Position numbers and translations under genes: made by a program | Notes under the pieces: model-generated | What the model was told of the DNA's origin: nothing | Databases searched by the model: none | The model's input: only the letters and a program-made list of their open reading frames with translations | Assembly (NCBI GenBank): GCA_017654855.1 | Contig: CM030334.1 | Location: forward strand, 3,534,001-3,598,000 | Direction of reading: 5' to 3' | Origin: Podospora anserina | Lineage: Eukaryota | DNA length: 64,000 bases | Shown: one piece after another, positions 10,097-34,723 of the stretch | Layout: every line of letters starts with the position of its first letter | How positions within the stretch are numbered: position 1 is the first letter of the stretch

Positions 10097-12557
10097 ATGC
10101 CTTCCTCCAAACTCTTGTCGCTCCTCGCCCTCCTTCCGGCTGCGGCTCTTGCAACCGACAATGCCTCGGTTCAGCCATCTGGGCTAGTCCGTCACTCTCT
10201 GACTGCTCAAGAGGGTGGTTCGCTTTTCAGCAGACACTCGAAGAGACAACTGGTCACTGAATCCTCGGCAAAGCGGGCCGGTACATTCTACACCATCAAC
10301 GTCAAGTTCGGGACGCCTGGCCAAAATGTCCCTGTACAAATCGATACCACGCAACCCGAACTCTTCGCGAACCCTAGATGTTCCACGTCATCGAACCCAT
10401 CCTTCTGCCAGAGCCAGCAGAGGTTCACCATGTCGAGCTCCCTCATCGATCTTGGGGTGCAAGGTTCGATGTCTCTGCGCAATGGTGGCTATGTCAACTG
10501 GCAATACGTGTCCGATTACATCGGTATCGGATGTAAGTTTGTGCATCATGGATGTTGTTTTAAACCGAGTTGGCTGACCTATATCCGTAGCCTCTAGGAT
10601 TACCCAACAGATCTTTGGGGTTGCCTACGACAGTTCCGGACCGACGAACGCCATTCTTGGTCTCGGCCCATCCCTTCAAGGCTGGACCAATGGGTATCCC
10701 CTAGTTCTCGACAGTCTCAAGACACAGGGACACATCAACAGCCGGGCCTGGACTTTGGATTTGAAGGGACTTACAAGCCAGAGCGGTTCGGTGATTTTCG
10801 GTGGCATCGACACCAACAAGTTCATTGGGGACCTGGTTAAACTCCCCATTGTCCCTGCCGCGCAATCTCCTGATGGGTATACCAGATACTGGATCCGCCT
10901 CGATGGTCTCTCGGTCAGACAGGCCGACGGCTCAGTTGTGGATGCCTGGGCTAAGCCGGAGGGTGCAGCGGGTCAGCCATTCGTGATCGACAGCGGCGCG
11001 AGTCTCACTGCCCTTCCCACGTCCATCTACAGCCAGTTTGTTGCGGCGTTCCCTTCGGCCACGGCTAACGCTGACGGGACTTTGGTTGTTGATTGCCCTA
11101 CTGAGGGTGAGGGTGGATCTGTCAACTTCAACTTCGATGGCAAGGACATCAGCGTTCCTTTCGGCGACTTTGTGTCTCGTGTGCCCGACACAGACACCTG
11201 TCTTTTGGGAGTTTATGAGGACAGCTTCCCTGTCCTTGGTACCAACTTCCTCAGGGCTGCCTACGTCGTGTTCGACCAAGACAACCGCAACATCCATCTC
11301 GCTCAGTCCGCAGATTGCGGTGCTGAGGCTCTTGTGGCTATTGGTACGGGTGTCGATGCTGTCCCATCGGTTACCGGCGCCTGCCCAGCTCCAGTGACCT
11401 CGACCACTACCACCGAGTCCGCTACGATCACAGAGGAGGTGACCTCCACCACTACCGAAGAGTCTGCCACCACGACTGAGGAGGCTACTACCACGACTGA
11501 GGAAGCTACTGCCACCACTGAGGAGTCTACCACCATCACAGAGTCCGCCACCATCACTGAATCTGCCACCGAGTCTGCCACCGAGAGTGCTACCGAGGCC
11601 GAAGAGAGCGAGTGCGAGACAGAGTATGAGTCGGCTACTGAGACTGCTACCGAATCGGCCACCGAGACTGCTACCGAGTCGGCCACCGAGACTGTTACTG
11701 AGTCTGCCACCGAGACCGCTACCGAGACCGCTACCGAATCCGTTGCCGAGACCTCAGTTGCTGAGCCCTCCATCACTGCGACCCAGACCTCTGCCGCCGA
11801 GACCTCGGTCGTGGAGACCAGTTCATTCCCCATCACCACCACTGCTGCTCCCCTCCTGACCATCACATACACCGAGACTTCGACCTCGACCATCACCTCA
11901 TGCCCTCCTTCAGTTCCCAAGTGTCCTGTCGGCTCCGTCACCGTTGTTACCCAGGTCATCACAGCTACCACCTCCGTCTGCCCTCAGACCTCGGCCACCT
12001 ACACCTTCCCTGCTGCCAACCCATCCGAGGCGCCTGTCGTCGTCACCCTCACCCCAGTCAAGCCGCTGCCCACTCCCGTCACCGTTCCTGGATGCAGCTG
12101 CACCGCTTCTCCATTCCCTACCGGACTCGCCCCCGGTCAGCCTACAACTTTGGCTACTGTGCCTCACATCGTCGCCACTGGTGTGCCCCAGGCCCCAGGC
12201 GCTGGTGTCCCCAACGTTCCGGGCACTGATGTTCCTCACGTTCCGGGCACTGGTGCTCCCCACGTCCCCGGTTCTGGCGCTCCTCATGTTCCTGGCTCCG
12301 GTGCTCCCCACGTTCCGGGCTCCGGTGCTCCCCATCTTCCCGGCACTGGCCTTCCCCATGTTCCTGGCACTGGCCTCGCCCCTGCCCCTACCCAGCCAGC
12401 CCATGGTGGCCACAATGGTACCAACCCGGTCCCCACCTTTGTTCCTCCTCAGGCTCAGCCCTCTGAGCCCGTGACGGCTGGATCCGCCAAGCTGTCCAGC
12501 GTGATGAACTGGGGCGCGGCGGCTGTAGTCGGTGGTGTCATTGCTGCCATGTTTTAA
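10097..12557 (+). CDS. Secreted, probably GPI-anchored yapsin-like aspartic protease (atypical first catalytic motif), 2 exons
   Basis: Signal peptide, YTINVKFGTPGQ, QIDTT and VIDSG, IFGGIDTNKF, VLGTNFLRAAYVVFD. Intron 10533-10590 joins the two ORFs in frame. T/E/S-rich stalk and hydrophobic C-terminus. Confidence 0.9.
11400..11760 (+). repeat. Coding tandem repeats (TTTEE(S/A) and 12-nt TESA/TETA units)
   Basis: Repeated ACCGAGTCTGCC / ACCGAGACTGCT-like units encoding ATES/ATET. Confidence 0.85.
12205..12376 (+). repeat. Coding 24-nt tandem repeat, about 7 copies of P(H/N)(V/L)PG(S/T)(G/D)x
   Basis: Translation VPNVPGTD-VPHVPGTG-APHVPGSG-APHVPGSG-APHVPGSG-APHLPGTG-LPHVPGTG. Confidence 0.9.
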
Positions 12558-14858: not shown

Positions 14859-16871
14859 TCACTGTAGCCATACCCTTTGTCCCCTTGCATTCAGGTCCGC
14901 GAGCGTGACAGGAAACCCGCTAATCGCAAATCGTTTCCCTCTGCCACGTTCATTTTCCTGCTGGTTGATGCTCCTTGCGTCACTCTCGTCGTCGGCCTGG
15001 AATTCAACCACAATGGCCTGCAAAGCTGCCTTGTCTCTGACACGCAACTCAAAGTCAAGCCTGAACTGTTCTATCCCCGTTCCGTCTGGATTGCACTCCC
15101 TCACTCTGACCATATCCCTCGGATTGACGGACCCGCTGGTGATGTCAGTCAGAGTCCTCCATTGTCTGTCCGCCGATGCCAAGCTCTTTTCCTCCTCGGC
15201 TGCTTCCTCAGTCGTCAGCTCTGTGTGATAAAACCTTGTCACCTTCCTCAGCAGCTCGCCCACAGCTGGCGCCTGATGCCTCAACCGACACCGCACCGCT
15301 CCCCGAAGCAACCTCCCATCCGGTCCGCCTGACGCCTGCTGATGAGACAAAGTAGACCTTGGAGAATAAGAGTCTGGTACCTCGAAAAAGAACATGCCCG
15401 CCATCAACACCCTCGCCACATTCTTGATCTTGTCCCTCCCCTGCCCACCAACCCCCGCCCACTCCCCTGTTTCCTTCAACAACCTCGGCACCTCCTCACA
15501 CTGATACAGCTGCACATACTTTGGCTTCAATTCCGGGTTCAGCCTCATCAACCTCCCCCTTTGCGACCGCTCCGCGCCCTCCACCACCCCCTCCCATAAT
15601 CTCTCCGTGTCCAGCTGCCGTTTTATCATTTTTTGCAAGGCAGTAAACCCCCTGAAGTTGCTCGCAAAAGGCATCTTGTCCGATTTTGGGCCTTGTTTCC
15701 CCGTCCCGAGCGACACAAGCGCATCAAGCACCACCCCGTTCCCCTCCCCACTCTCCCGAGACCAAATCTTTGTCTTTTCATCCATCGCCACTCGTGCCGG
15801 ACAGTTGGCGTAAACCGCCCCGTCAATGTACTCCTGCCCCCCCACCCCCCATTCTCTTTTGAACACTGGCAAATAAAACGGCGCGGCCGCGGTGGCCATA
15901 GCCGCCTCCCAGATTTTGAAATCCTTCTCCAAATCATCTTCCCTTTCAAAACCAGATCTGCTGCTACCACCACCAACACTGTCAGTGGCAGAGGTAGTCA
16001 AAGGCCTGTTATAATTCCCAATCACAACCTCCGTATCCCCATCATCCCTCGTGCTCGTCACCGCAACCCTCACCCCCGACCCAAGCGCACCAGAAGCCAG
16101 CACCCTCTCGCTGTTGAACGTTGGCGCAAAAAGGCTCGTCTTGTCCCCAAAATACTGCTCCAACCCCGACCGCAAGGGCCGATCGCTATACACACTCTCC
16201 ACCCTCCTGAAAACCATCGCCCCCCTCGTCAGCGCCCGCCACCCAAGTCGCGAGTTCTCAAACGTCGCGGTGGAGATCTTGCTGAAAAAGGCGATCATGT
16301 CCTGCATCCTGGTATCGATCCCGCTACCCCGCCTCGCCAACGGGGAAGAAGCGACGGCGGCAGGGTCGGAAGGGAGCTTCCCCGGAAAGGTCAGCGCGAG
16401 AGCAACGATCCCTCCTGTGCTGGTCCCCACGATGAGGTCAAACATCTCGGCCAGTCGGACGTTTGTCAGGCCGATTTCTTGCTCGAGCGCCTGGACGAGG
16501 GCGAGCTCGACGATGCCGCGGACGCCGCCGCCGTCGAGGGTGAGGATGCGGACGCCGGAGCAGCGGGGTCTGAGCTGGATGGTTTGGTGCCCGTCCTGGC
16601 CGTCGCAGAGGATGCAAGAGTCTAATTCGAAGGCGGCGGCTTTCCAGCGGGAGGGGGTGGAGAGCTCTTGGATGCAGCGGGGGCAAAAGGCGTGGCCGCA
16701 CGATAAGGCGTGGTCGGGGGAGGAGAGGAGGCAGGAGAGGCAGGTTTTGGTAGAGAGGAGTTGGGTGAAGAGGGGTTTGTTCTGGGGGGTGAGTTCGCGG
16801 CGGAGTTTGAGGATGGAGGTGTCGACTTGTTGGTTGCCGTGATGGTTGAACTCGCGGTCTCGGAGCTGGAG

Positions 16872-16903
<32 letters not shown>

Positions 16904-18908
16904 GGAACTGTCCGGCGGGTTGGGGTTCGTAGCTGTCTTGGTGGGGAGGAAGGGGGGAGCGGTACACTTTGCGGTATAACTCGCAGAACCGAGCTCGTAT
17001 GCGCTGGCGCCAGACGTCTCTGTTCCAGTCGTGACCGGGGACAAAGTCGCCCGGTACCGGCTGGAGGTTGTGTTTGTGGCCGGGACCGGACGGGGGAGGG
17101 ACGTGCTGTTGGTGTTTGCCTCGCTTGCCACCGTGCCCCCGGACTTGACAGCTATATGGAGTCAGAGCGCCTTGTGAGTTCAGAAAGGTGTAAGAGCACT
17201 GCTCATGCAAGAGCTGGTACAAGGCCAGCCCGCCATCCCAGTACTTCCTCAAGTCCTGATCGAATTTGATCTCGGGGGTAAAAGTGGCAGAGTCCCGTCT
17301 CCGAGCGAGGATCAAGAGAGACAAAGCGATGACATTCTCAATCATGCGGTCCATACCAGCAAGCTGGGTGTTGTTCACCCTGTTTTCACGGTCATACGCC
17401 AGCCGCAGAAAGTTGGCAATATGTTCCCTGAGATTGGTGGGTGTGTGATTGTCGCGACAGGTGGCCTTGTAAAAGTCGAGAGGTGTGCTCGACTCGGAAA
17501 AATGTCGAAATGTGTTGGACAGAAAGAGAGAAAGCCCAGCGACGTTGTAGCGGGTCAAGCTCTCCGCTCTGATATCCCGCTCCTCGACAACCGCACGATC
17601 AAGAATACGCTTGAGGTTTCCGAAATGCTCAAGAAGCTTCTCTGGCTTGCCATGGTTGTCGACATGGTTGTTATCAGGGATGTAGCAAAGGTGAATGCTG
17701 CGGAAGAGCTGACGATACAAATCGTTATTACTCCTGATCATCAACCCTAAGCTCGTGGACGCGTTGAAGCGCTCGACAAAAGTGGCAATCACTCCGGTCC
17801 TCTTCCACAGGGCTGGGCTCTGCGACTCCAGAAACTCTTGTTTCAGCATCTCCGGCGTGCTGTCCTTTTTGTCTGGGGTGTACTTGTTGCGAACAACGAT
17901 CAATGTCTTGCCAGACGGTTGGTTGAAAGTCTTGAGCATTGCTCCGGCAGCCCACTCGAGGATCCGAGGAAAGTCGTGTCCTTTGGTTTTGGGATTCTGC
18001 GTGACAAACACAACAACGTCACTGACAGCGTAGAGAAACCGGGCGTAAAACAGGTCAATCCCTGCTTTGCCTCTGCCGTAGTCGTCGGCCTTGATGGTTC
18101 TCGTTTCCACCTGCTCGTCAGGATCTTCTGTGTCCGGGACGGCCTTCTCAGCGTTGGTGAGAGCAAAATCGGCTGTGAACCCTTCACAGTCAGCTAAAAG
18201 TAGGGGGTATTGAGGATCTGGCGACGGCTCTGGTTGAGTGGTGATGTTGTTGCGATAAAGGTGGACTCCAAAGGTAGCGGGATCGTCGCCGCCCTGTGAG
18301 ACTGGCAACTCGTGCTTCTCAGGGCGGTCCAAGACGCTTTGTAACAGGTTGTACAACGCGTTCTCTCGACCCAAAGCGCCCGAGGAGTCTCCTGCTCTCT
18401 GCTCGGCTAGTCCGAGTAGAAGCATTGCCCTAGCGACTGTGGACTTCCCAGCATATGTATTTCCAATGAACGACACGATGCTCGGATAATGGTTCCCCGT
18501 GATCCTGTTTCCAGTTTGGTGAGGGTCGCAAAGACGTCGAAACCGGTCGTACAGCCAGAGTTCCGGCTTGTCATCTTCTTCTTTTCCCTTCTTGACGCTA
18601 AACCAGCGCGCAAGCTTATCGTGGCCGTGGAGTGCCTTGATTTGAGCATCATCAAGGTCGGAACAGGTGATGGCCTTGATGAACATTTCTGCTGTCGGGT
18701 TGGCTGGTTGATGAAGAGCTTTGAGCTTCTCATTTGTGAATTGCTCGATGTGCTCGTTCCAACATGAGTGATGCTCAGAACAGGGAATGTTTCGGCAATC
18801 GTCAATAGTGCAAGAAATACAATAGGAGTCGTTGCATTTGATGCACCGCCGACCTATGGGCTTCCCATGATGGGGGCTGGAGGGCTTTTCGCACAGAAAA
18901 CATTGCAT
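14859..18908 (-). CDS. Multidomain protein: Cys/His ZnF - GBP/atlastin-like P-loop GTPase - RING finger - patatin-like phospholipase
   Basis: Uninterrupted 1349-aa ORF. N-terminal CxxC clusters; Walker A GNTYAGKS, ATFGVHLY, LLADCEG, LYAVSDVVVFV; RING CLSC...CGHAFCPRC...CILC; patatin DGGGVRG, GTSTG, IDGA. Confidence 0.9.
16872..16904 (-). repeat. (CAA)11 microsatellite encoding polyQ
   Basis: Pure TTG x11 on the + strand, between the GTPase region and the RING finger. Confidence 0.95.
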
Positions 18909-19628
18909 TTTGAGTACCTTGCTGATGGGTGGTAATTGTAGTAAGCTGAAATGTTTGGGAATAAATTGGGTTTGTGAATGGTCTTCTTGGATTCAAGACA
19001 AGCGAAGCACACTGATATAACAGTACTAAGATATGACAAGGCCTCAATTTATACTACGGTAGATCATAAGGTACCCCCCCTCTGGAACTGACCTGGTAGC
19101 CAAGATCATCCCGAAGAGGGGTGCATACCTACGACCGTGAAGACGATAAGAGAGAAACATAACCGGCGTGTCGAAGTGGATCTTGATTCGTGGGAACTGT
19201 GGTGATGTACTTACCTTAGGTACTATTGATAGCTGAGCCGCCACTGTGGTTCGCGGTCAACGCAGCCGGACATCGACGCCTTGCGCCAACTTTGGCTTGA
19301 TACGGTTTTGTGGCTTGTTTCCACGGGAGTCATCACGCATTCATGTTCGATTTAGGGGGTTGGAGTGGCGGCCGCTCTGCCAAAATTCCAATTTCCCGAA
19401 AAGAACATGAGTCAGCGATATACAGGGACTAATTACACGAGGGATCTAAAGTCCGTCTCAAAATGATGCTCAGATCGTGGTCGTCTCTCGTGAGTCATTC
19501 AAGAATTTTGATTCAAACAATGACCTCCATTTCTAATTATACATTAAACGCCTTTATCTGCTTAGAATCATCATTCGCCGAACCAATTTCTGCACTCTGC
19601 CCAATCTCCAACTTTCGGCTCACTCCAT

Positions 19629-21692
19629 TCAGTTCCACAGCCTTGGTGATGGGCCACGATCGTTGTCAAGTGTACTGAGGGGAATGCCACCTTCTATCGT
19701 ATCATCTTCCCATGTGTGACGCTCCCGTGCCCGCAGGCGGTCTTGGATTGCCGGATTTCCATCCTTTCCAAACTTGAAGATGTTAGCCTGGCTCCAAGCT
19801 TTAGCAGCCCGTTTCTCTGTCTCATCTGATCGCATCCATTTCACTGCGAACATGATAGATCTGCCGATCATTAGAATTATAATGGTGCCGGAGAAGCTGT
19901 AGCCAAGCCCGGCGAAGGCATCCTTCATTTGATTTCTAGTAACTGTCAGTAGCTGTGTCGTCTCTACGCTGGCCATAAAGCTTACCCGAGACGTTCAGAC
20001 ACCGATGCTGTCGTCAATACGGAGAAGCCGTCCGATTCAACAACCTCTTGACTGCATAGCTGTCAGATACAAGTCTTATCCGGTGTAGGTGACTGATTCT
20101 TCTCCTACCTCGCAAAACACCCAGTCAGAAACATTCCGATGAAACCACTAACGGTGTGTATGAGAAACACTTTGAGCTCGTCATCCGGGAGATATTCAGA
20201 AGTGAGGGGTTTCAACATGTACACGACAGCACTTGAGACAATGCCGAATATGGCCGACGTAGAAGCAGGAACCTGGCATTGTTAGCTTAATACAAGATTG
20301 TCAAAGCCTTAAGATTCGCCACTAACATAACCGCTTCCTGGCGTGATGGCTACAAGCCCAGCGATAGCCCCATCGCAGAAGTGCACGGCAGTGAGCCTCC
20401 TAAACTCGCGCGGCTCATAATCGGCGCTCCTCATGTATATCTGTTTTAGAACCCAGTGAAGGAACACAGTGGTAGTACCGCCAGCGCAAGCTGCCACGTG
20501 CGTGGCCAAGCATGCAGATACGGCTCGGCTGTTTGCCCCAAGTGCTGAACCCCCATTGAAACCGAACCTGTTGAGTGTATCAGATAGGGTCTGACGAGGG
20601 GAAGCTTTGGACTCCGCAAAGAAGAGCTCTGGGGGACAACTACATACCAGCCAAACCAAAGTAACCCGGTCCCAAAGATTGCTTGGTTGACGTCGTATAC
20701 TTCGTAACTCCTTCCTGGAATGATGTCGGCCTGTTTGTACTTTGGGAGCCATGGTGAGGTGTTGAACAACCAGCTTTTGACCCACATGGCCGCTGCCCAT
20801 GGGAGGTTTTCATTGATACGTTTTTTCGTAACACTTGATAGGTGCAAGTAGGCCCTTTGCCACCCATTGGACTCAAAGAAGTAAAAAATAGACATGGCGG
20901 CAACAGCGGCGCCGCTCGCTATGTGCACTGGGGTGCCGCCAGCAAAGTCCATACTGCCCAGTTGGTGAGACCAGCCCTCGCTGTACCAAGACCACCGAGC
21001 AATTGGACTGTAGATTACAGCTGACCATACACTGACGAAAAGTAGGTACCTTGCTGAGTGCATCTTTTGCATTGTGCCTGCGCAGATGAGAGCAGCACTG
21101 GTTTAGGGTTAGCAAGTATCAGGTCATGAACGGGCGATGGCGAGGGCCTACGTAAAAGCTGCAAACATGCCCTGAAAGAGGGCAAAGGCTAGCTCTGGAA
21201 GATGCTGGACGGGTGGCCCTTCACTGGTCGTGACTGATGACCCTTGGTTGGTTGAGTAGACATCGCTCGGCGACATCTGTAGACCATTTGCCGTTGACAG
21301 GCTGCCGAACCAAATGTTTCCAGGAGTAAATGTCAAGGCGTAACCCCATAAGTACCACTGAATGTGTCGAGGTCAGACGCCCTGTGAGGTGGGGAACAAA
21401 TTGGAATTGCCGTACCTGGAAAGATATCATAGCACCAGTGAGCAGGGGCTGTTTGAACAAGGTGATGGCGAACAACCGGCTTCCAAGCCCAGAGTAAACC
21501 ATAGAGATCGATATAACCATAAGAAAAACAAGAGCTGAGCATACCATCAGCCAAGCGATGTCAGCTTTCTGTTTGAGTCGATTCGATATCCTGATCAGCT
21601 TCCAGTCTCAAGGCGGTTTATGCTCTGGCACAGCAACTTACATCAAAAGTGACATCGGCACGCGTCAAGATTGGAGCTGTCATCCTTTCCAT
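19629..21692 (-). CDS. Divergent ammonium transporter (Amt/Mep/Rh family), about 8 exons
   Basis: Spliced by hand: ADIAWLMVCSALVFLM, WYLWGYALTF, FQGMFAAFT, DFAGGTPVH, LLWFGWFGFNGGS, GAIAGLVAITPGSGY, DDELKVFLIH. All introns have GT..AG ends with branch-like CTAAC/CTGAC sites. Confidence 0.9.
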
Positions 21693-22448
21693 GTGAATCA
21701 GGTCGCTGCCCGTCTAGAATGTCAGCGCATATGAACAACAGCAAACGAGGGTAAGAAGAGGGCCGCAATTTAATGGGATTTGGACATGATGACAGTCCGA
21801 GTCAAGCAAACCGGCCAGAGCAAAGATGTCACCCTTCTCAGAAACCCAGTGACGCGGCAGACGAGAGCACAGCCAGCTCGAGCCTTGTGCAAAAGTCTTC
21901 CCAACCCCGGATCGGGACCCGGGGTGTGAAGGCGTCAAAATACGATGCAGCGGGCGGCAAAGCGGTGGCTTGAGGTGTGATAGTTGCGATAAGGGATTGA
22001 TTGGCCAGGAGACGGAGGCTTCATGACAATATTAGCACAGCCGGCAACCAAACCGGTCCAGCTTTGACCAATTTCCGTTTCCACGAGGTGGATGGGTGTC
22101 TCCTTTCAACCGAGTTTAAGGCGACCACTGCTTGCCCGCATTTCCCTCCTTGAAGAGCTCCGGATCAGAACGGGATGAAGAAGGCGGGGGCTGGTGCCGC
22201 TGCCCACACCGAGAAAGGAACCCCCACCAAAACCAAATATGCACGGTATCGGAGGGAGGGGGAGTCCTCTGGACTTTGGTCTGCTCTGGCCCTTCCAAGC
22301 TGTGAGGCACATAGGTACCTACTTAGGTAGTGTGGGTGAACAAAAAGCATCGATTCGACCCCCTGGAATCCTGTAATGACCAACAGATAACACATCATGT
22401 CGCTCTGGCCATTTTCTCGCGATCGTTTTGACAGTGTCATAGATAGAA

Positions 22449-23824
22449 ATGACCGCTCCCGTATGCAGCAGACTCCTCTTCCGACATGACGACAACCATA
22501 CCGAGCGCCTCATCTTCTGGTCTCCCGATGAGGTCACGCGCGTCAAGAAACGCAGCGCTTTCCTCAAGCGGCGCATAGTTTATCTCGAAGTCGACCTCGG
22601 GCGGAGACCAGAAGAGATAAGCTTCCAGAGACAGGGCGAACTTCCCCATCCAACATCCCTGACACCAGGTGTTAGTCTCAGCGACTTCAGGGGCTTTCTC
22701 CGTGATCTTGCTTCAACAGGGAATATTCCCAGCACGTTTGAACATCTAGTTCCCTTTTGCAAGTGCGCTTGGGTGTGCGAATGCCCTCCCGACCCCGCCA
22801 CCCTGCCCTTACAGATCTTCAGCCGCAAGCGTGGACCAGATGAACGTCGCGATGTCATAGCTTGCAAGTTTGACCCGATTTCGAGAGACGGTCGGCCTTG
22901 GGGTCTCACTCGGGAGTGCGAGGTCTACGATGGCGACACCTGCGTGTGCAGCGCTGAGCTTGCCAACATGTTCCTTTGGTTTGGCTGGGAGCATCATTTC
23001 AGAAAGCATCTGAAGTTGGCCATATGGACAGGAAGTAAAGAAAGCGTTGCTATCCTGACGCCCGTTGCGCAGCTCCAGAACCTTCAAGGTAAATACTTTG
23101 GGATTCATCTGCCAAAGACATACAGCGTTATCTAACGACTCGATATGTAGATATCAGGGATCGTGAGATTCAGTCCATGAGAAGCGATCTTCGTCGATAT
23201 TTGGACAGCAACCAAAGCGACTACAGGCACTGTGTCAAAGACTCCACCAAAGACGCCATTGAAAGATACCTCGCCAACATGGAGGATTTGCCCGCAAGAG
23301 TAGGGCGCACTTTGGAGAAGCTATTCACGGGGAGCAGCGAGGTAAACGGCGCCGCTTCGACATCACCGACACGACCCTTCAACGAACACAGGGTTTCGCT
23401 CAGCCCTAGTGTGCCAACATCACTGAGTTCCGGGGGCAGTGGCGCCGAAAGTTCTGGACCTGAATCGGCAAGCGGCTCTCAACCGGATCGTACAAGCTTC
23501 TACAACCCAGAGCTCCACGGCTTCTACCATCCACATGCTGCCGGCGTTTACTATTCACAACCGGCCAGTGTCAATCTTCCTGACCCATCCCCACCAACGA
23601 AGAGCCCCGCGAGGGCTGGATCGTTTATCGAGATCTTTGGTTTTGCTGGTAAAATATACAAAAATATAGAAAAGAAGGAAGGGAAATCTGATGAATTTGC
23701 CTCCAAAGTACTGGCTCATCTTGCCAAGGGGATTGAGGTGAGACAGAAGGAGCTTGAGGACTCAATATGGGCTATGCGAGAGGGGAAGATACGTGCGTGG
23801 AAATATGAGCTCGGGATAGAATAA
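22449..23824 (+). CDS. Hypothetical protein (about 437 aa), 2 exons; possible highly divergent BTB/POZ-like N-terminus
   Basis: Intron 23089-23150 (GTAAAT..CTAAC..TAG) joins ORFs 22449-23135 and 23177-23824 in frame (NLQ/DIRDREIQSMRS). The BTB resemblance is weak and by eye only. Confidence 0.75.
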
Positions 23825-24240: not shown

Positions 24241-25101
24241 ATGGAGTCGAAACCAATCAACGACACGGCTTACAATCGATTTATCACGCTCTTTTTATTT
24301 CGACTGAATTCTATCGGATGGATGCGCCGTCTGCGAAAATCGCCCTGGGGCATTGTTTGCGTGTCATCAAAGCGGTGCATCAAGGCGGGGGCGTTCACGA
24401 CGCTGGCTGAGGCCAACGCGATGCGCTTTGTGGCCGAAAACACATCGATTCCAGTCCCCAAGGTCTACTGCAGTTTTGAGCACGGCGAGAGGGTGTATAT
24501 TTTGATGGAAAGAGTACCAGGACGCATCCTCTCAGAGGACTGGAGCGAGCGGTCGGAAGAATCTAGGACTCGCATTCTTGATCAGTTGCGAACCATGGCT
24601 AGCGAGCTTCGACGGCTATCGCCTCCAGAGAATATCACGGGGGTTGCGAACGTGGATGGTGGTCCTATCTGCGATGGTCGCCTTCCTGACGGTCCGTACT
24701 GGGGGCCTTTTAAGACTATTGAAGATTTCCATCGAAAGCTCTGTGGTGGTATTGGCAGCGCTGATGAAATTGACGATGACCTCGAGGGAAAACTCCCCGG
24801 CTTGAGGGAGCTAGTTGCTCAGTATAACAGCTCATCAGAGTCGCAGAAACCGGTCTTTACACACAACGATTTGAGCCCCAACAACATCATGGCCGAAGGA
24901 GACACCCTCACGGCGATTATCGACTGGGAAATGGCGGGATGGATGCCGCCTTACTGGGAGTACACATCAACTTGGCACATCACCCCACGGCTGGCTTTCT
25001 GGAGAGATTATGTTGACCAATTCTTGGAACCGTTTCCGCACGAGTTGGAGATGGAAAAGCAGCGCCGGCGCTACTTTGGCGAGTTCGGAGTTGACATCTA
25101 G
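24241..25101 (+). CDS. Aminoglycoside phosphotransferase / choline kinase-like protein kinase
   Basis: EANAMRFVAENTSIPVPKV, ILMERVPG, FTHNDLSPNNIM (Brenner motif), IIDWEMAGWMPPYWEY. Confidence 0.9.
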   Translation: MESKPINDTAYNRFITLFLFRLNSIGWMRRLRKSPWGIVCVSSKRCIKAGAFTTLAEANAMRFVAENTSIPVPKVYCSFEHGERVYILMERVPGRILSEDWSERSEESRTRILDQLRTMASELRRLSPPENITGVANVDGGPICDGRLPDGPYWGPFKTIEDFHRKLCGGIGSADEIDDDLEGKLPGLRELVAQYNSSSESQKPVFTHNDLSPNNIMAEGDTLTAIIDWEMAGWMPPYWEYTSTWHITPRLAFWRDYVDQFLEPFPHELEMEKQRRRYFGEFGVDI

Positions 25102-26453: not shown

Positions 26454-27447
26454 ATGGTCCTCCTCCTCGCCCTCTACGTCCTGGTATGCCACCACCCTGA
26501 CCTTTAATCACCCCAATGCTAACCCTTTTCCCAGCTAATCATCACCCTAACCGGCCTCGCCATGTCTGTCCCCCCGTTTCCCCTTTCCCCTCGCCATCAC
26601 TAACCTTTATCCCAGCTACCAACACCACACAAGCACCACCCTCTCCCTCCCCCTCTCCCCCACCCTCACAATCCTCACCATCCTCCTCCCCCTCCTCTCC
26701 CTTCTCACCACCTCCCTAACCTTCTTCTCCTCCTCCCACCCCCGCAAACCCCTCCCCCCCCTTTTATCCAACGCTCTCCAACTCCTCCTCACCATCATCT
26801 TGTCCACCCTGTTCGGCGCCACCCTCACATCCCCCTATCTCCCCTGCGCCCTCCAAACAACCTGGCGATCCCTCTGGACATCCCACTCCGCCACCCCCAT
26901 CCGCACGATTCAAGACTCCCTCTCCTGCTGCGGCTTCAAATCAACCAAGGACATGGCCTGGCCTTTTCCCTCGAGCGGCAACAACGGCGATGTTTCCAGC
27001 TGCGAGAAGCAGTTCAACCGGCACACACCCTGCGCTGGACCGTGGGAAGACGCCCTGAACAAAACGACCGGGGTGGAGCTGGGTGTTGTTGTGGTAGCGG
27101 GGGTTGTTCAGCTTCTTTCACTGGTGGTGTTTAAAACACAGCGGAGGGGGGGGCAAGGGAAAAAGGTGTGGTTGGGGAGGGTGGTGGAGATTTTTACTGG
27201 ACAGGACGATGAAGGGCAGGGGAGACGGCCGCTTTTGACGGGGGGGAGGGGTCACAGTGAGGAAGGGAGGTATATTGACGGGGGAGTGGAGGAGGAGGAG
27301 CAGGGTGGTCACGAAAATGGCAATGGCTATGGAGGGACCTCAAGCTCAGCCCAGACGCAAACACAACCAGACGACAATAACAGCCGTGGTGGACCAAGGG
27401 TCGAAGTCTCCCATCATGACCCCTGGGCCGGGGCGGAGAGGGTCTAA
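26454..27447 (+). CDS. Tetraspanin (Tsp3-like), 3 exons
   Basis: Two short 5' introns; four hydrophobic helices; large extracellular loop with IQDSLSCCGF plus further Cys; long C-terminal tail. Confidence 0.8.
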
Positions 27448-27630: not shown

Positions 27631-30600
27631 CTATAGTTCATCATGTCCCCCCTCCTCCTTCTTTTCCACTGGATCCTCAAAGACTGGTTCCTTGGCCTCC
27701 TGCTGATTCTCATTCTCCAACTGCTGCTTGTCCAAGAACTCCTTGAGCATCTCGTTCAGCTCCTCCTGGCTCGGCATCTTCCCGTCCTTACCGGGCTGCA
27801 GCTTGAGAGTCGGCGCCGCCGGCTTCCCGTTCTTCTGCGTCGACGTCGACTTGGCCTTGGCCGTCTTGGTCTTGCTCTTCGTCTTGGCCTTCTTGGCCTT
27901 CTCACGCTTCTCGAAGTTGCGGACGCCCTTCATGGCGAGATCCATGCCCGCCTTGTCGAGCTTCTCTCTCCGGTCGACGAGGTCCTTGACCAACAGGACG
28001 GGGTCGTCCGTCTCGCCGAGCTTCTCCTGGGCGATGAGCTTCTCCTCGAGCCAGGCAGAGATGGTGATATAAAGCTCCTCGCTTTCCTTCAGGTCCGCCA
28101 GTTCATAGACAGGGGGAACAGGACCGCGGTCCTTGTTGAGGTCCTCCATGCTCGTGGCAGTCTTGGTAGAGCTGCTGGGTTCATCCTCAAGGCCGTCAAA
28201 GTCGTCGGCAGACGAGGCAGGGGCTTCGGTGACGGTCGAGCTCTCGGTGCTGGTGGTGGATGAGGAGGCGGAGGCTGAAGCCTGGGCAGAAAGGAACGCC
28301 TCGTGGTCAGCAATCTGCTTCTTGATGTCAGCAACAAAGTGCTGGGTGCTGTTGAGGGCGTCCTTGAGATCCTTGATAAGCTCAGGTCTCTTGGCCAACT
28401 CTTCGATCCTCTGCTGAACAGGCGTGACAAGCTTCTGGAGGTTGGTCAGGCGCTGCTTGAGCACCTTCTCGGTGGCATCGGCACCATCGCCATACAGCCA
28501 GTCACTATCCTCGCTGTTTTGCTTCTCAATCTTGGCCCGCTCCTCGGCGGTCGAGACGCGGACAAAGTCCTCATTCTCAACAATGTCCCGGACCTTGTAG
28601 GTGTACGACTCGAGCTGGTTCAGCGCCTCCTCGCGCTGTCTCCGAGCGCGATCAGACGCCTGGAAAGCCTTGAGACGGTCCTTGATGGCAGTAAGATCCG
28701 CCTTGGAGAGCTGGGGAATGCCAGACTTCTCAAGAGTAAATTTGACTGGGATAACAATTAGTTCCCTTTTCGGTTCGGCAGGCTTTCCGTCGGCAGAAGC
28801 AGAGGCAGAGGCAGAGGCAGAGGCAGAAGAGGCGGCAGAAGAGGCGGCAGAAGACGAGGCAGTGGTGCTCGAGGATGAATCGGTCGGGGACGACGACGCG
28901 TCCGCAGACTCGCTCTCGGAATCACCTTCCAGTGGCTTCTGTTCCTTCTTTCCGAAACCAAACAGGTTCTTGACGCCATCGACGATACCGGCCTTCTCGG
29001 CGGTCTCGGTCTCGCACTCGACAGTGACCTTGGTCACGTCCACCTCACCGTCCTCGTTGGTGAGACGGACGCCGACCTTGACCTTGACGTCGGCCTTGTC
29101 GCACTTGTGCTTTTCAACAAGCTCGGCGACAGTGGCAGTCAAGTTCTGAGTGGCCAAGACCTTGGTGTCAGCCTCGGCAGACTCAAGAGCCTGGTAAAAG
29201 TTGACGGAAAAGTCCTCCTTGTTGGTAAAGGTGAGCTCCTTGGCAGGGGCGCCAAAGTACGAGCTGGCGGTCCAAAGGCGCTGGTGCTTGGGCTTGCCCT
29301 CGTCAGTTTTCCACCTCATGCCGGCAGGGTACACAGCAGCCTCGGAGATGCGAATCTCCTTGACACGGAAGCTGGGGCTGATCTCGGCAGCTCTGAAGCC
29401 AGCACCGAAAACAGCAGCCTCATCAGAGTTGACGTTGGTGCGGAGCTTGTCCGAACCGCCAAGGGCCTTCTCGAGCTGCTTCTGAACAAAAGGAGTGCGG
29501 GTAGCACCGCCGTGAAGAATGACAGAGTCAAGATCCTTGACCTCAAGTCCGGCAGCAGTAAGCGCGTTCTGAACGGCGATGCTGACTCTTTCAATCTGAG
29601 ACGAAGCCATCTCCTCGAAATCGGCGCGGGTAAGCTTGTACTTGAAGTCGATATCATCGTAGAGACCCTCGAAGCTGGTACCGGTAACCTGGTTGGCACT
29701 GAGAACGTGCCTGACCTTTTCGGCAGACGTGGTCAGCTTGGCGATGGCGCGGCCGTGGGCAATGACGCCCTCAGCCGTCACGGAAGCCTTCTGAGCCTTG
29801 GGAGACTCGACAAACTTGGAGATCATGTCATCAACAATCAAGTAGTTGAGCGCATCACCACCAAGGGTGCGGTCCCAACCACTGCCAAGAACCTGGACTT
29901 CCTGAACAGTCTTGTTAAACTTGCCAATGTCCTTGACCGTCCTGCTCTGGAACTTGAGCACAGTAGCTGTGGTGGAGCCAGCACCCATATCGAATACCAT
30001 GTGGTGCTCGGGCTTTCCTCCCTCGTTGACATTGGGGAACTGTCTGCTGGTGGCATAGTTGAGACCCACAGCCAGACCCTCGGTGATGAGCGACAGGACC
30101 TTGAGACCAGCGAGGTCAGCGGCCAACTCGATGGCGCGCTTCTCCTCGATGGTATAGAAGGGGGGAATGCTGAAGACGACAGAGCGGACAGAGCTTCCCT
30201 TTCCAGCGAGTTCCTCAGCGTTGGCGCGGATAGCCTGGAGCTCCATAGCCAGCAGTTCCTCCACTAGCCATGCCTCCTCTTCCTGTGTAAATGCGCCGGC
30301 GCTCTTGAAGGCGGCGGTTCCCTTGACCTTGTGGGCAACCAATTGAAGAGCTGGGTGGCGCTTTGCATATTCCTTCACCTGGGCGGCATCGACGGGGAGA
30401 CCGAGGAGGGGCTTGAGGTTTGGGAACGAATCGCCAGGGAATCGCGGGGCAAGGGCCATGGCATCAGAGCCATAGGCGCGCTCGGGGTAGGTGCCCTTCT
30501 TGGGGCCATTTTGAGAGGGCTTGAAGGTGACGGCCGAGATTTCTTTTCTTCTCGAGTCTTTTGTCAGGACAATCTCGAGGGGAATACCCGGCTTTACCAG

Positions 30601-30726
30601 GGCGGCCTTGATGTATTCTGTGCCCAGATCGACGCCCAGGACAGCGGAAACGGCAAAGACATGGGAGGAGAAGAGGAAGATGGCAGATAATAATATTGAC
30701 AACGGCGATAATGTTGGCCGCGCCAT
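27631..30726 (-). CDS. LHS1: ER lumenal Hsp70-family nucleotide exchange factor (Lhs1/Grp170/HYOU1)
   Basis: Signal peptide, VLGVDLGTEYIK, FDMGAGST, LHGGATRTPFVQ, NSDEAA, C-terminal HDEL. Confidence 0.95.
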   Translation of the reverse strand: MARPTLSPLSILLSAIFLFSSHVFAVSAVLGVDLGTEYIKAALVKPGIPLEIVLTKDSRRKEISAVTFKPSQNGPKKGTYPERAYGSDAMALAPRFPGDSFPNLKPLLGLPVDAAQVKEYAKRHPALQLVAHKVKGTAAFKSAGAFTQEEEAWLVEELLAMELQAIRANAEELAGKGSSVRSVVFSIPPFYTIEEKRAIELAADLAGLKVLSLITEGLAVGLNYATSRQFPNVNEGGKPEHHMVFDMGAGSTTATVLKFQSRTVKDIGKFNKTVQEVQVLGSGWDRTLGGDALNYLIVDDMISKFVESPKAQKASVTAEGVIAHGRAIAKLTTSAEKVRHVLSANQVTGTSFEGLYDDIDFKYKLTRADFEEMASSQIERVSIAVQNALTAAGLEVKDLDSVILHGGATRTPFVQKQLEKALGGSDKLRTNVNSDEAAVFGAGFRAAEISPSFRVKEIRISEAAVYPAGMRWKTDEGKPKHQRLWTASSYFGAPAKELTFTNKEDFSVNFYQALESAEADTKVLATQNLTATVAELVEKHKCDKADVKVKVGVRLTNEDGEVDVTKVTVECETETAEKAGIVDGVKNLFGFGKKEQKPLEGDSESESADASSSPTDSSSSTTASSSAASSAASSASASASASASADGKPAEPKRELIVIPVKFTLEKSGIPQLSKADLTAIKDRLKAFQASDRARRQREEALNQLESYTYKVRDIVENEDFVRVSTAEERAKIEKQNSEDSDWLYGDGADATEKVLKQRLTNLQKLVTPVQQRIEELAKRPELIKDLKDALNSTQHFVADIKKQIADHEAFLSAQASASASSSTTSTESSTVTEAPASSADDFDGLEDEPSSSTKTATSMEDLNKDRGPVPPVYELADLKESEELYITISAWLEEKLIAQEKLGETDDPVLLVKDLVDRREKLDKAGMDLAMKGVRNFEKREKAKKAKTKSKTKTAKAKSTSTQKNGKPAAPTLKLQPGKDGKMPSQEELNEMLKEFLDKQQLENENQQEAKEPVFEDPVEKKEEGGHDEL

Positions 30727-31696
30727 GGTGGGCGAGTGTGTGCGTGTGTGTGTCGCCGAAACAACAATCGAGTCGGTGTTGTTATGTTGGTGTTGGTGTT
30801 GGTGGTGCTGGTGTTAGGTGGGAAAGTAGAGCTCCAGCCAGCTGTCACCCAAAAGGTACTTGTTCGAGTTCCCCGCCAATTTGGAGCTTGCTGTGGATGA
30901 ATAGGTAGAATGAATGCACCGCTACGCAAGAGTCAATGGCAAGCAAGCGGCAGGCGACAGGAGATATCGCAAAGAAAATGGAGCAAAAGTTATAGATGTG
31001 GCCTCAACTGAGGAAGAGTCTGATGACCTTCCTTCTTCGTTTCTGGGATCTGGTGTTTCTTGTTCTATCAATCTGTTCCAAAATCCAAAGTGGCTACGCT
31101 GTTCACATCTTCTTGACAGCGCCCACAGACCCCTGTCCACTGATGCGACGCCCGAGCTTGGGCGAGCTTTGGCCAATCAGATCATCTCCGCTCACAAGAC
31201 CAGATCGGTATCTGATTAGCTAATTGCCAAGAGGGTGTCTTGGCATCAAAGAGCAAAGCCTGAAATTCATTGTTCGAGATTAGCAGAAGGCTGCGTGCAG
31301 CATAAAACTAGCATATCTGAGACCGGAGAATCTTCATTCACTCATACTGCTCCTTGACCCCATGTCCCTTTTCAGCGCTTGACCGGAGGGTTTGTCGGGC
31401 CGGCGCCGTGAAGTGGGGCCGTTGAGCCGGCGAATGCGGCAGATGTCCCGGGACGTCTCATTACGTACAGATACCACAATGTTACGTTTCGGTCGTTTCG
31501 TCGACCACCGGTCGTCCTTCCATGATTGGAATGCTCTAGAATCTAGACTTATCATCTATGTACAACCATTGCAACTACCCTCCAAGGCTTTGGACAGTGC
31601 AGAATTAGGTTTGTACAAGTTATGCAAGGCTGGCATTAGATCTTCTTTCACCCATTGCTGCCGTTGACAGCCCATCACGATATACTTCAACTAATG

Positions 31697-34276: not shown

Positions 34277-34723
34277 GCTGGAGTATTCAAAATCCCAAAT
34301 GTCATTAAAATGGTTCGCGATGTCAGAAAAGAGCTGGAGAATCAGACTCTTGTTTGGCTGCAAATCGGAGACGGGCGCAAAGAAAGTCGACATCCAGGCT
34401 CTCAGTCGAGCTCTGCGCAATTGGCAGTGGGGTCCCAACTTTTTTCTGGGGCTCGTCCAATTGCCAGCATTGACCGCTCTCGCTATCCCTGCTTATCGCT
34501 TATCGAGCCGTTCGAGGGTGGATCTACCCGTTCTTGGCAGCCCTCCCAAACACCGTCGCAGGCCAACGCGTGCGCCATCCAATCACTGGTGTCCCCTGAA
34601 GGGGCATTGGATGAAGCCATCTCACCCTCACTCACGACACTCACTCTTGTCTTCATGACAGCTCCATAACACTATCCTCAACTCACAAAAAATGAGAGGG
34701 ATCTCACACTCCCCCCATCGAAA

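Follow-up and report, generated by a model that had tools for sequence, protein, structure and literature searches.

A conserved three-gene cluster of Pezizomycotina: a divergent Mep/Amt gene beside a GTPase-RING-patatin gene and a fast-evolving third gene

Do an ammonium-channel gene and its two neighbours form a unit in filamentous fungi? The question is raised by a stretch of 64,000 nucleotides from the Podospora anserina species complex (Podospora anserina, GenBank assembly GCA_017654855.1, contig CM030334.1, positions 3,534,001 to 3,598,000), hereafter the window. This fungal DNA holds three clustered genes, which encode a patatin fusion protein of 1349 amino acids (aa), a divergent member of the Mep/Amt family of 545 aa, and a protein of 437 aa whose gene is here called the third gene (Table 1). 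A sequence-only reading of the window had proposed that the three products could act as membrane sensor, switch effector and adaptor. We found that the three genes constitute a conserved, co-inherited cluster of Pezizomycotina, with the third gene divergent and the Amt and GTPase-RING-patatin genes in tandem, and that selection has kept this order and orientation while the surrounding genes changed.

In annotated genomes, 16 orthologous pairs of the divergent Amt gene and the GTPase-RING-patatin gene were checked, spanning Sordariomycetes, Leotiomycetes, Dothideomycetes and Eurotiomycetes. The two genes are consecutive in 15 of them: Triangularia setosa, T. verruculosa, Apiosordaria backusii, two Cadophora species, Coniochaeta ligniaria, Stipitochalara longipes, two assemblies of Hyaloscypha variabilis, Phaeosphaeriaceae sp. 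PMI808, Zopfia rhizophila, Fonsecaea erecta, Cladophialophora yegresii and two assemblies of Cladophialophora carrionii. That consecutive accessions are adjacent genes is inferred from the numbering of genome submissions. The sixteenth pair, in Podospora australis, is two genes apart, and a homologue of the third gene (KAK4185798) lies between the Amt and the patatin gene. In Cercophora samala, Amt and patatin sequences are found in a single merged gene model.

The same arrangement was found in metagenome contigs, which were scanned with an alignment of the orthologues and yielded 72 loci. By tblastn score, 19 of 25 checked loci belong to the orthologous clade; a further locus, L007, was added as it is 99.3% identical to L006. 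In all nine orthologous-clade loci with enough upstream flank, an Amt gene lies on the same strand and ends 0.7-1.3 kb before the patatin gene. L006 and L007 represent one organism, and the other loci are 67-76% identical over short parts, which gives eight organisms. The recurrent neighbourhood predicted by the sequence-only reading is thus borne out by annotated pairs and metagenomic loci alike, and inside the orthologous clade we saw neither unlinked genes nor independent patterns of presence and absence. Paralogues behave differently. No Amt was found in the 2-10 kb of upstream flank at the paralogue-clade loci L014, L015, L017, L019, L025/26 and L035, and in P. didyma the paralogue and its Amt are located on the same contig 672 accessions apart. 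When six-frame open reading frames (ORFs) of the window (positions 4859-30000) and of the nine loci were compared, the Amt and patatin families and their shadow frames were the only ones common to all; beyond these, sharing was confined to ORFs of the third gene. All ten of these DNA-level cases have the same order and strand.

The Amt-adjacent patatin proteins form one clade of 20 rows (Shimodaira-Hasegawa-like approximate likelihood ratio test, SH-aLRT, 100; branch 1.11) in a tree built by a quick method under LG+G4, which carries a long-branch warning for one outlying row; the patatin paralogues form a 26-row sister clade. Adjacency evidence is available for 14 of the 20 rows of the linked clade, one more is near-adjacent, none was found unlinked, and the remaining five were not checked. 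In the tree of 81 fungal Amts, also made by a quick method and with one long row flagged, 67 divergent sequences are separated from the canonical Mep/Amt1 proteins by a branch of 1.71 (SH-aLRT 100); all patatin-linked Amts fall within a 61-row subclade of the divergent clade.

The linked patatin clade contains three groups: Dothideomycetes with Chaetothyriales, Coniochaeta with Hyaloscypha/Stipitochalara, and Cadophora with Podosporaceae. The first two groupings are the same in the Amt tree, where Podosporaceae and Cadophora share one starred clade that also holds Sordariales paralogues. At the level of groups the two topologies mirror each other, including the same departures from the species tree: in both, Coniochaeta of the Sordariomycetes is found with Hyaloscypha/Stipitochalara of the Leotiomycetes. 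The mirrored trees therefore indicate joint inheritance of the Amt and patatin genes. Its route would be an old duplication of the whole cluster followed by differential loss, or else the transfer of a cassette between classes.

The third gene had been regarded as an orphan, and to an ordinary search it would look like one restricted to its lineage: phmmer with its first exon against 1.84 billion representatives returned five proteins, among them the homologues in T. verruculosa and P. australis. Profile comparison removes this status, since homologues were found in the same place and orientation at all seven testable loci. Divergent ORFs upstream of the Amt gene in L001, L002, L003 and L005 constitute family A7, which hhalign matched to the Podosporaceae family A5 with a probability of 97.4% (E 1.3e-11, 177 columns). 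Family A8, made of ORFs from L007 and L009, matched A7 with 95.5% (E 1.6e-8). The direct comparison of A5 with the Coniochaeta-like ORFs of A8 was not significant (probability 5.7%), and the link is transitive through the Cadophora-like family A7. Hidden Markov models (HMMs) built from A5 and A7 and applied to 5,326 ORFs from all 72 loci matched only L001, L002, L003, L005, L006, L007 and L009. These seven, from six organisms, are exactly the loci with an Amt-patatin pair and enough flank. The N- and C-terminal parts of the third gene lie there on adjacent minus-strand ORFs, like the two exons of the window. In T. verruculosa, the homologue KAK4197064 adjoins the Amt KAK4197063. Together with this genome and P. 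australis, the seven loci place the third gene in the conserved arrangement.

Identity across five locus pairs ranges over 26-49% in the third gene, 45-69% in the Amt and 42-69% in the patatin protein (rough, ORF-based values). The third gene evolves faster than both neighbours in all five pairs for which a value was obtained, a sixth pair being without a third-gene match. With it the locus defines a protein family that evolves quickly and passes for an orphan in sequence searches. Its product is harder to classify. The sequence-only reading had seen a weak BTB-like pattern; sub-threshold leads from a protein atlas point the same way, and Pfam gives the pattern no support, as a search with six family members at E up to 10 had no match, including BTB (PF00651). 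Profile searches of the PDB with the family returned nothing usable. In the atlas, two distant members stand beside the same Ascomycota cluster and beside clusters with 14-17% BTB proteins (feature scores 0.93-0.94). Among ten structural neighbours, seven are BTB/POZ and one is Skp1-POZ, all with template modelling scores below 0.5, which is sub-threshold, and for a model with a predicted local distance difference test score (pLDDT) of 0.40. The N-terminal domain is possibly BTB/POZ-like, which we treat as a lead only.

Two further members of this family were noted. P0245, a protein of 183 aa from a Logan contig, is a homologue 65% identical to the third-gene product of the window. Its changes are mostly P to F/L, R to C/W and A to V; it resembles a copy mutated from C to T, as in repeat-induced point mutation, from another strain or species. 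In L005, positions 1174-2697 of the minus strand hold a second, longer member (508-aa ORF, HMM E 4e-31) some 3 kb past the first; in this metagenomic locus the fast-evolving gene has been duplicated locally.

The gene models of the window were compared with contigs from four sequencing runs, whose kind is guessed as RNA and which inform on spliced forms only, not on levels, strands or ends. Contigs spliced as predicted cover all three genes, and the eight predicted joints (seven in the Amt gene, one in the third gene) are all carried by contigs from the four runs. The introns of the locus are short, with GT..AG ends. Those of the Amt gene are seen as joints in four runs from four studies, the seventh in three of the four runs. 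Spliced at these joints, the Amt frame is open over its 545 aa, from the ATG at 21692 to the stop codon at 19629-19631; 521 of the 545 residues equal those of the homologue P0096, and the largest exon is 98% identical to P. pseudopauciseta QC763_310010. The third gene has its ATG at 22449, its stop at 23824 and an intron at 23089-23150 that was found in all four runs, and its spliced frame is open. The patatin fusion has no joints inside it in the RNA contigs, which cover 15852-19138 in run X1, and is 98% identical to P0001, a Podospora pseudocomata protein with the locus tag QC762_310000.

Table 1. Coordinates of the cluster, its intergenic regions, the domains of the large protein and the flanking genes, in positions of the window
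Feature	Position	Strand	Details
GTPase-RING-patatin gene	14859..18908	-	single-exon ORF, 1349 aa; orthologue of Podospora QC762_310000
GBP/atlastin/RNF112-like GTPase domain, ~residues 60-420	17649..18731	-	model, Foldseek, motifs
Helical middle domain, ~residues 421-700	16809..17648	-	helices 422-689 in model
Poly-Q tract, residues ~666-683	16859-16912	-	translation; skipped as repeat in contig mapping
RING-type C3HC4 motif, ~residues 719-770	16599..16754	-	eight invariant ligands
Patatin-like phospholipase domain, residues 789-1042	15783..16544	-	Pfam PF01734, 2.2e-24
C-terminal beta-sandwich domain, ~residues 1170-1349	14862..15401	-	strands in model; no known family
Amt-stop to patatin-ATG spacer	18909..19628		720 bp; holds Amt 3' and patatin 5' untranslated regions
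Divergent Mep/Amt gene	19629..21692	-	8 exons, 545 aa; orthologue of Podospora QC763_310010
Amt introns	19936-19985, 20052-20108, 20270-20323, 20566-20645, 21098-21151, 21358-21415, 21569-21641	-	contig joints
Amt/third-gene head-to-head region	21693..22448		mostly transcribed as Amt 5' untranslated region per contig cover
Third gene	22449..23824	+	2 exons (22449-23088, 23151-23824), 437 aa, fast-evolving family
Cluster flanking genes	24241-25101 (+), 26551-27447 (+), 27631-30813 (-), 31697-34492 (-), 10578-12557 (+)		

These models confirm the earlier placement of the patatin fusion in one open frame, with a co-oriented Amt gene upstream at a stop-to-ATG distance of 720 bp. In this spacer, Amt contigs reach down to 19495 (run X10) and patatin contigs up to 19138 (run X1), and three HGATAR sites were found. 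The head-to-head region, given as about 760 bp by the sequence-only reading, measures 756 bp from ATG to ATG; at the transcript level the untranscribed gap is much smaller. In two runs, contigs of Amt-transcript depth go as far as about 22147, and in a third they cover at least 22072 (X10 does not show this); the contigs of the third gene begin at 22305-22371, so that most of the intergenic stretch is probably the 5' untranslated region (UTR) of the Amt gene and only about 150 bp is untranscribed by contig cover. The region contains four HGATAR sites compared with a 95th percentile of three in 757-bp windows of the stretch, a weak enrichment. As side observations, the Amt-depth contigs run about 450 nt upstream of the Amt ATG (21693-22150, minus strand), which suggests a long 5' UTR, and an A>G difference was seen at 22092 in two runs.

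Among the contig pieces listed, no joint or piece bridges the Amt and patatin genes, and no read-through or fused transcript was seen among them. The public model P0004 of C. samala (1620 aa) fuses a partial Amt to patatin and skips Amt exons and the N-terminal Cys-rich part of the patatin protein. It is probably an annotation merge of tandem genes. The patatin gene of Cladophialophora carrionii is split into two models of 853 and 318 aa. The genes that flank the cluster are ordinary and unrelated to it (an APH-type phosphotransferase, a tetraspanin-like, an Hsp70-family, a DEAD-box helicase and an aspartyl protease gene), and a comparison of ORF families found none of them common to the distant loci.

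The Amt belongs to the ammonium transporter family. P0096, which is 96% identical to the Amt of the window, matches Pfam Ammonium_transp (PF00909) with 220.9 bits versus 23.2 (3.2e-65), and exons of the window itself reach 58.7 and 47.1 bits. The closest solved relative is Mep2 of Candida albicans (about 1e-61); E. coli AmtB and archaeal Amt-1 follow at about 1e-34 to 1e-35. We also considered the archaeal-derived MEP class of lichen fungi, outlined in an excerpt of PMC6652019, and rejected it. The best matches outside the divergent clade are canonical fungal Amts (256-265 bits), no prokaryote is found among the top 120 matches, and Mep2 scores far above AmtB and archaeal Amt-1.

The 18 aligned Amts, divergent and canonical alike, all carry D187, H195, H406, F133, F290, W172/W174 and S294, and the pore motifs are present in the spliced product of the window. 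By E. coli numbering, we take these to be the aspartate D160 of EcAmtB, the twin histidines, the phenylalanine gate and the Trp/Ser recruitment site. Because the pore residues are all intact, the protein may still conduct ammonium, and the repurposing suggested by the sequence-only reading would be only one possibility. The changes lie elsewhere. Two insertions set the divergent Amts apart: one of about 50-150 residues separates transmembrane segments (TM) 5 and 6, and a shorter one separates TM7 from TM8. At the C-terminus, all four canonical rows have an acidic E-x-x-G-x-D stretch (e.g. EEEEIGLDD). It is found in no row of the divergent clade, where most rows with an intact tail have a motif of the type L/F-x-A-x3-Q/H-x-W instead. 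If the N-out topology of AmtB and Mep2 applies, as we assume, the TM5-6 loop, the TM7-8 loop and the C-terminal tail are cytosolic, and by this analogy all three clade-specific changes would sit on the cytosolic face.

The domain architecture of the large protein is newly defined here: a GBP/atlastin-like GTPase, a RING, a patatin domain and a beta-sandwich. An alignment of 15 orthologues shows conservation from end to end, with a variable, Cys-rich N-terminus, and the label GTPase-RING-patatin used in the sequence-only reading stands on a GTPase fold match, invariant RING-type ligands and the Pfam Patatin match. Pfam reports no family in residues 1-603 at E up to 1, including no GBP or Dynamin_N; homologues carry a precomputed assignment to PF28431, a family not reported by the Pfam copy used. 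The AlphaFold model of residues 1-700 (pLDDT 77.8, predicted template modelling score, pTM, 0.72) was matched by Foldseek to RNF112 (9jjx, E 1.3e-5, probability 1.00) and also to atlastin-1, Sey1p, GBP1 and mitofusin (0.94-1.00). For the RNF112, atlastin-1, Sey1p and GBP1 chains the probability is 1.00 with E values of 1.3e-5 to 6.7e-5 and template modelling scores by target of 0.32-0.47, over residues of about 60-560. The P-loop residues G149/G154-K155-S156 and the stretch D240-C-E-G243 are invariant, and T157 and T211/T212 are nearly so, the latter assigned to switch I by position only. GBP and atlastin GTPases carry the G4 motif RD for guanine specificity; here the stretch reads V-R-N, with N341 nearly invariant in 38 sequences. 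By its modelled fold, the N-terminal half comprises a GBP/atlastin-type large GTPase and, behind it, a helical middle domain. The linker that joins the middle domain to the RING contains a poly-Q run, which orthologues from beyond the P. anserina complex lack or have in a much shorter form.

The RING-type ligands C723, C726, C737, H739, C742, C745, C765 and C768 are invariant in the 15 orthologues, with no Pfam RING match. Patatin (PF01734; 87.2 bits, cut-off 27.7) is the sole Pfam family in the protein, and its motifs D792-G-G-G795, G798, G828-T-S830-T-G832 and D1029-G-A1031 are also invariant among them, R797 being nearly so. In the model of residues 700-1349 (pLDDT 83.4, pTM 0.90), the patatin fold (VIA) aligns to iPLA2-beta with a Z score of 31.2 (root-mean-square deviation 3.2, 301 residues aligned), to plant patatin with 30.7 and to CapV of CBASS (cyclic-oligonucleotide-based antiphage signalling system) with 30.6; the best Foldseek E value of the patatin core is 1.3e-16. 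The beta-sandwich has only weak structure matches (Z 5.3-5.8), in a search dominated by the patatin domain, and the S-G-F-P stretch at 1330-1333 near the C-terminus is invariant in the 15 orthologues. No TM-like segment was found in the protein (highest Kyte-Doolittle mean over 19 residues, 1.6). Segments conserved only in the Amt-linked clade are concentrated in the N-terminal GTPase half (eight of nine flagged windows), and paralogues do not have the insertion at residues 165-200. One paralogue, P0031, carries ankyrin and SPRY domains. The most distant matches, P0089-P0095, are patatin proteins with NB-ARC or NACHT domains, and the patatin module thus recurs in fungal sensor-like architectures.

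What could hold the three genes together? We propose, at a rough probability of 40%, that their products would form a unit at the membrane composed of a sensor or anchor, an effector and an adaptor. We favour this reading because the channel combines a kept pore with a rebuilt cytosolic face, the large protein is a soluble enzyme that would act on membranes, and the third protein is small and fast-evolving. The Amt-like protein would be the membrane-bound part, most likely a substrate-coupled sensor or an anchor, because its conduction residues are kept, its cytosolic loops are changed, the ExxGxD stretch is lost and a tail motif of its own is gained. The large protein, which has no TM segment, could be recruited to or controlled by the channel as the effector. 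Its RING E3 and patatin phospholipase A activities, directed at the membrane or at the channel itself, would be turned on when the GBP/atlastin-like domain dimerises in a GTP-dependent manner. The small, fast-evolving and possibly BTB/POZ-like protein could be the adaptor or regulator. The likely output would be local hydrolysis of lipids, ubiquitin signalling or both, by which the channel could be regulated, or the membrane remodelled, with cell death as the extreme. We speculate further that the Amt, pore-intact but remodelled on its cytosolic side, is an ammonium-conductance-coupled receptor that, via the BTB-like adaptor, directly recruits and switches the GTPase-RING-patatin enzyme and so turns a nitrogen signal into ubiquitin and phospholipid signalling, or into membrane destruction, the cassette being inherited or transferred as a whole; in this specific form the idea is doubtful.

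Several observations weigh against a sensor-effector-adaptor unit. A complex prediction for the Amt P0096 with residues 60-510 of the patatin protein is not among them: it scored 0.00 with alignments not used and is no evidence either way. For the annotated genomes, adjacency is deduced from how GenBank accessions or locus tags follow one another along a contig rather than from coordinates. Only Podosporaceae and six metagenomic organisms, whose cluster proteins score closest to Cadophora and Coniochaeta, could be tested for the third gene. Paralogues of the Amt clade also occur apart from the orthologous patatin gene, as second copies on other contigs in T. setosa, T. verruculosa and P. australis. 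The L/F-x-A-x3-Q/H-x-W tail motif is found as well in Amt paralogues without a known patatin neighbour and is therefore not specific to the pair. Finally, with RN instead of RD at G4, specificity for GTP is not assured.

The strongest rival is that the genes share regulatory DNA, in the form of a divergent promoter of compact size and a tandem spacer that serves as terminator and promoter. The three genes could then belong to one physiological programme with no protein contact, such as the scavenging of nitrogen, or the handling of ammonium together with turnover of membrane lipids. Orientation and spacing are what such an explanation expects, being kept in the window and all nine loci (tandem, 0.7-1.3 kb, divergent neighbour), as is an untranscribed head-to-head part of only about 150 bp; and with its pore intact the Amt may simply transport. 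The mild enrichment of HGATAR sites (4 in 757 bp, 95th percentile 3) agrees with this rival, but it is weak. Shared regulation, moreover, rarely keeps unrelated genes adjacent over four fungal classes while other neighbours are replaced, no metabolic step joins phospholipase A, a RING and ammonium, and the specific remodelling of the cytosolic face of the Amt would be left unaccounted for. We consider this explanation unlikely, though it deserves to be taken seriously.

Less probable still is a surveillance or cell-death module, in which the GTPase-RING-patatin protein would be an immune-type executioner, the Amt its guardee or decoy and the third protein a specificity or regulatory factor; the model for this reading is the neighbouring fungal pair SEC-9/PLP-1, with its patatin NLR. 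Patatins have a role in fungal cell death mediated by such NOD-like receptors (NLRs). CBASS CapV and CapE patatin domains are among the nearest structures and GBP-type GTPases among the nearest folds of the large protein, whose distant patatin relatives include proteins with NB-ARC or NACHT and one paralogue with ankyrin and SPRY. A rapidly evolving specificity factor would suit the third gene, the fastest of the three in all five locus pairs with a value, and the patchy distribution and the topology that both trees share against the species tree are also consistent with it. Against it, iPLA2-beta and plant patatin lie just as near in structure, and none of atlastin, Sey1 and RNF112 is an immune protein. 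Pfam finds in the large protein neither NB-ARC or NACHT nor a repeat sensor domain. Invariance of every pore residue would be unnecessary in a pure decoy, and the proteins of the window are 96-98% identical to their sister-species orthologues.

The absence of any functional link, with chance adjacency or block transfer or duplication of a segment, would account for the arrangement within Podosporaceae by general synteny and for the shared tree departures by block transfer, but it is hardly credible given adjacency in at least 16 annotated assemblies of four classes and eight further organisms with no other neighbour common to all, order and strand kept in 10 of 10 DNA-level cases, paralogues without the arrangement, and a persistence so long that it needs selection even after block transfer.

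The proposed membrane unit can be compared with several known systems, and by analogy its closest principle would be glnK-amtB, its closest channel relatives Mep2, its closest N-terminal architecture RNF112/atlastin/GBP and its closest fungal pair SEC-9/PLP-1. In glnK-amtB, the PII partner plugs the channel. This conserved prokaryotic gene pair of an Amt channel and a PII regulator is cited in the reference list of PMC6837285. As there, an Amt channel gene is kept beside the gene of a putative cytosolic partner over a wide range (15 of 16 pairs and 9 of 9 loci here), and the cytosolic face and tail of the channel would be the expected docking surface. Unlike glnK-amtB, the cluster is eukaryotic and appears to have separate transcripts, the predicted partner is a GTPase-RING-patatin protein of 1349 aa and not PII, and there is a third gene. 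The Mep2 transceptors of Saccharomyces cerevisiae and C. albicans belong to the same family, and the cluster Amt keeps their twin histidines, phenylalanine gate and aspartate. It differs from them in its long-branch clade, loop insertions, a tail without the acidic E-x-x-G-x-D, and dedicated genomic neighbours, the last of these not being known for Mep2. Transceptor signalling depends on conductance through the protein, as stated in an excerpt of PMC6837285. A precedent for an Amt as the input to a cytosolic output is the bacterial Amt-histidine kinase fusion, whose Amt domain (PDB 6eu6) is among the sequence matches of the Amt (E 3.2e-13). That domain has a sensor role; its output is a fused kinase, whereas that of the cluster would be a separate neighbouring gene with GTPase, RING and lipase domains.

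The RNF112/atlastin/GBP proteins are the best fold matches of the N-terminal half of the large protein and share its P-loop, switch-I threonine and DxxG, and RNF112 also joins a RING to this type of GTPase. The large protein differs from them by having no Pfam GBP or dynamin match, RN at G4 and no TM anchor; its RING follows the GTPase, and patatin and beta-sandwich domains are added. SEC-9/PLP-1 (het-Z, vic2) is an adjacent allorecognition pair of filamentous fungi, in which PLP-1 is an NLR with patatin, NB-ARC and TPR. There too, in Sordariales and beyond, the gene of a patatin nucleotide-switch protein lies beside that of a membrane-associated protein. The protein of the cluster, in contrast, has a GBP-like GTPase and a RING, and by Pfam no NB-ARC/NACHT or repeats. 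None of these systems includes the cluster, its partner not being PII, NB-ARC being absent and the Amt tail not being canonical. Searches of full-text literature, which covered neither supplements nor subscription journals, returned nothing on the pair, on Pa_3_10000/10010/10020 or on a fungal GTPase-RING-patatin protein. We regard the cluster as an Amt channel with dedicated, genomically coupled partners, and as a new form of the Amt-partner principle.

The locus is a case of deep microsynteny, which fungi rarely show apart from metabolic clusters. Across four classes of filamentous ascomycetes the same two partner genes have stayed beside one Amt clade, the usual neighbours have all changed, and only the cytosolic face of the channel has been rebuilt. 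If the link is only regulatory, the cluster is still a useful marker of a conserved co-expression unit. How ammonium transceptors signal into the fungal cell is an open question, for which this locus is a natural lead, and P. anserina is a harmless model with tractable genetics, which makes the idea directly testable. If the receptor reading is true, the cluster would provide the first defined downstream machinery of a fungal ammonium transceptor.

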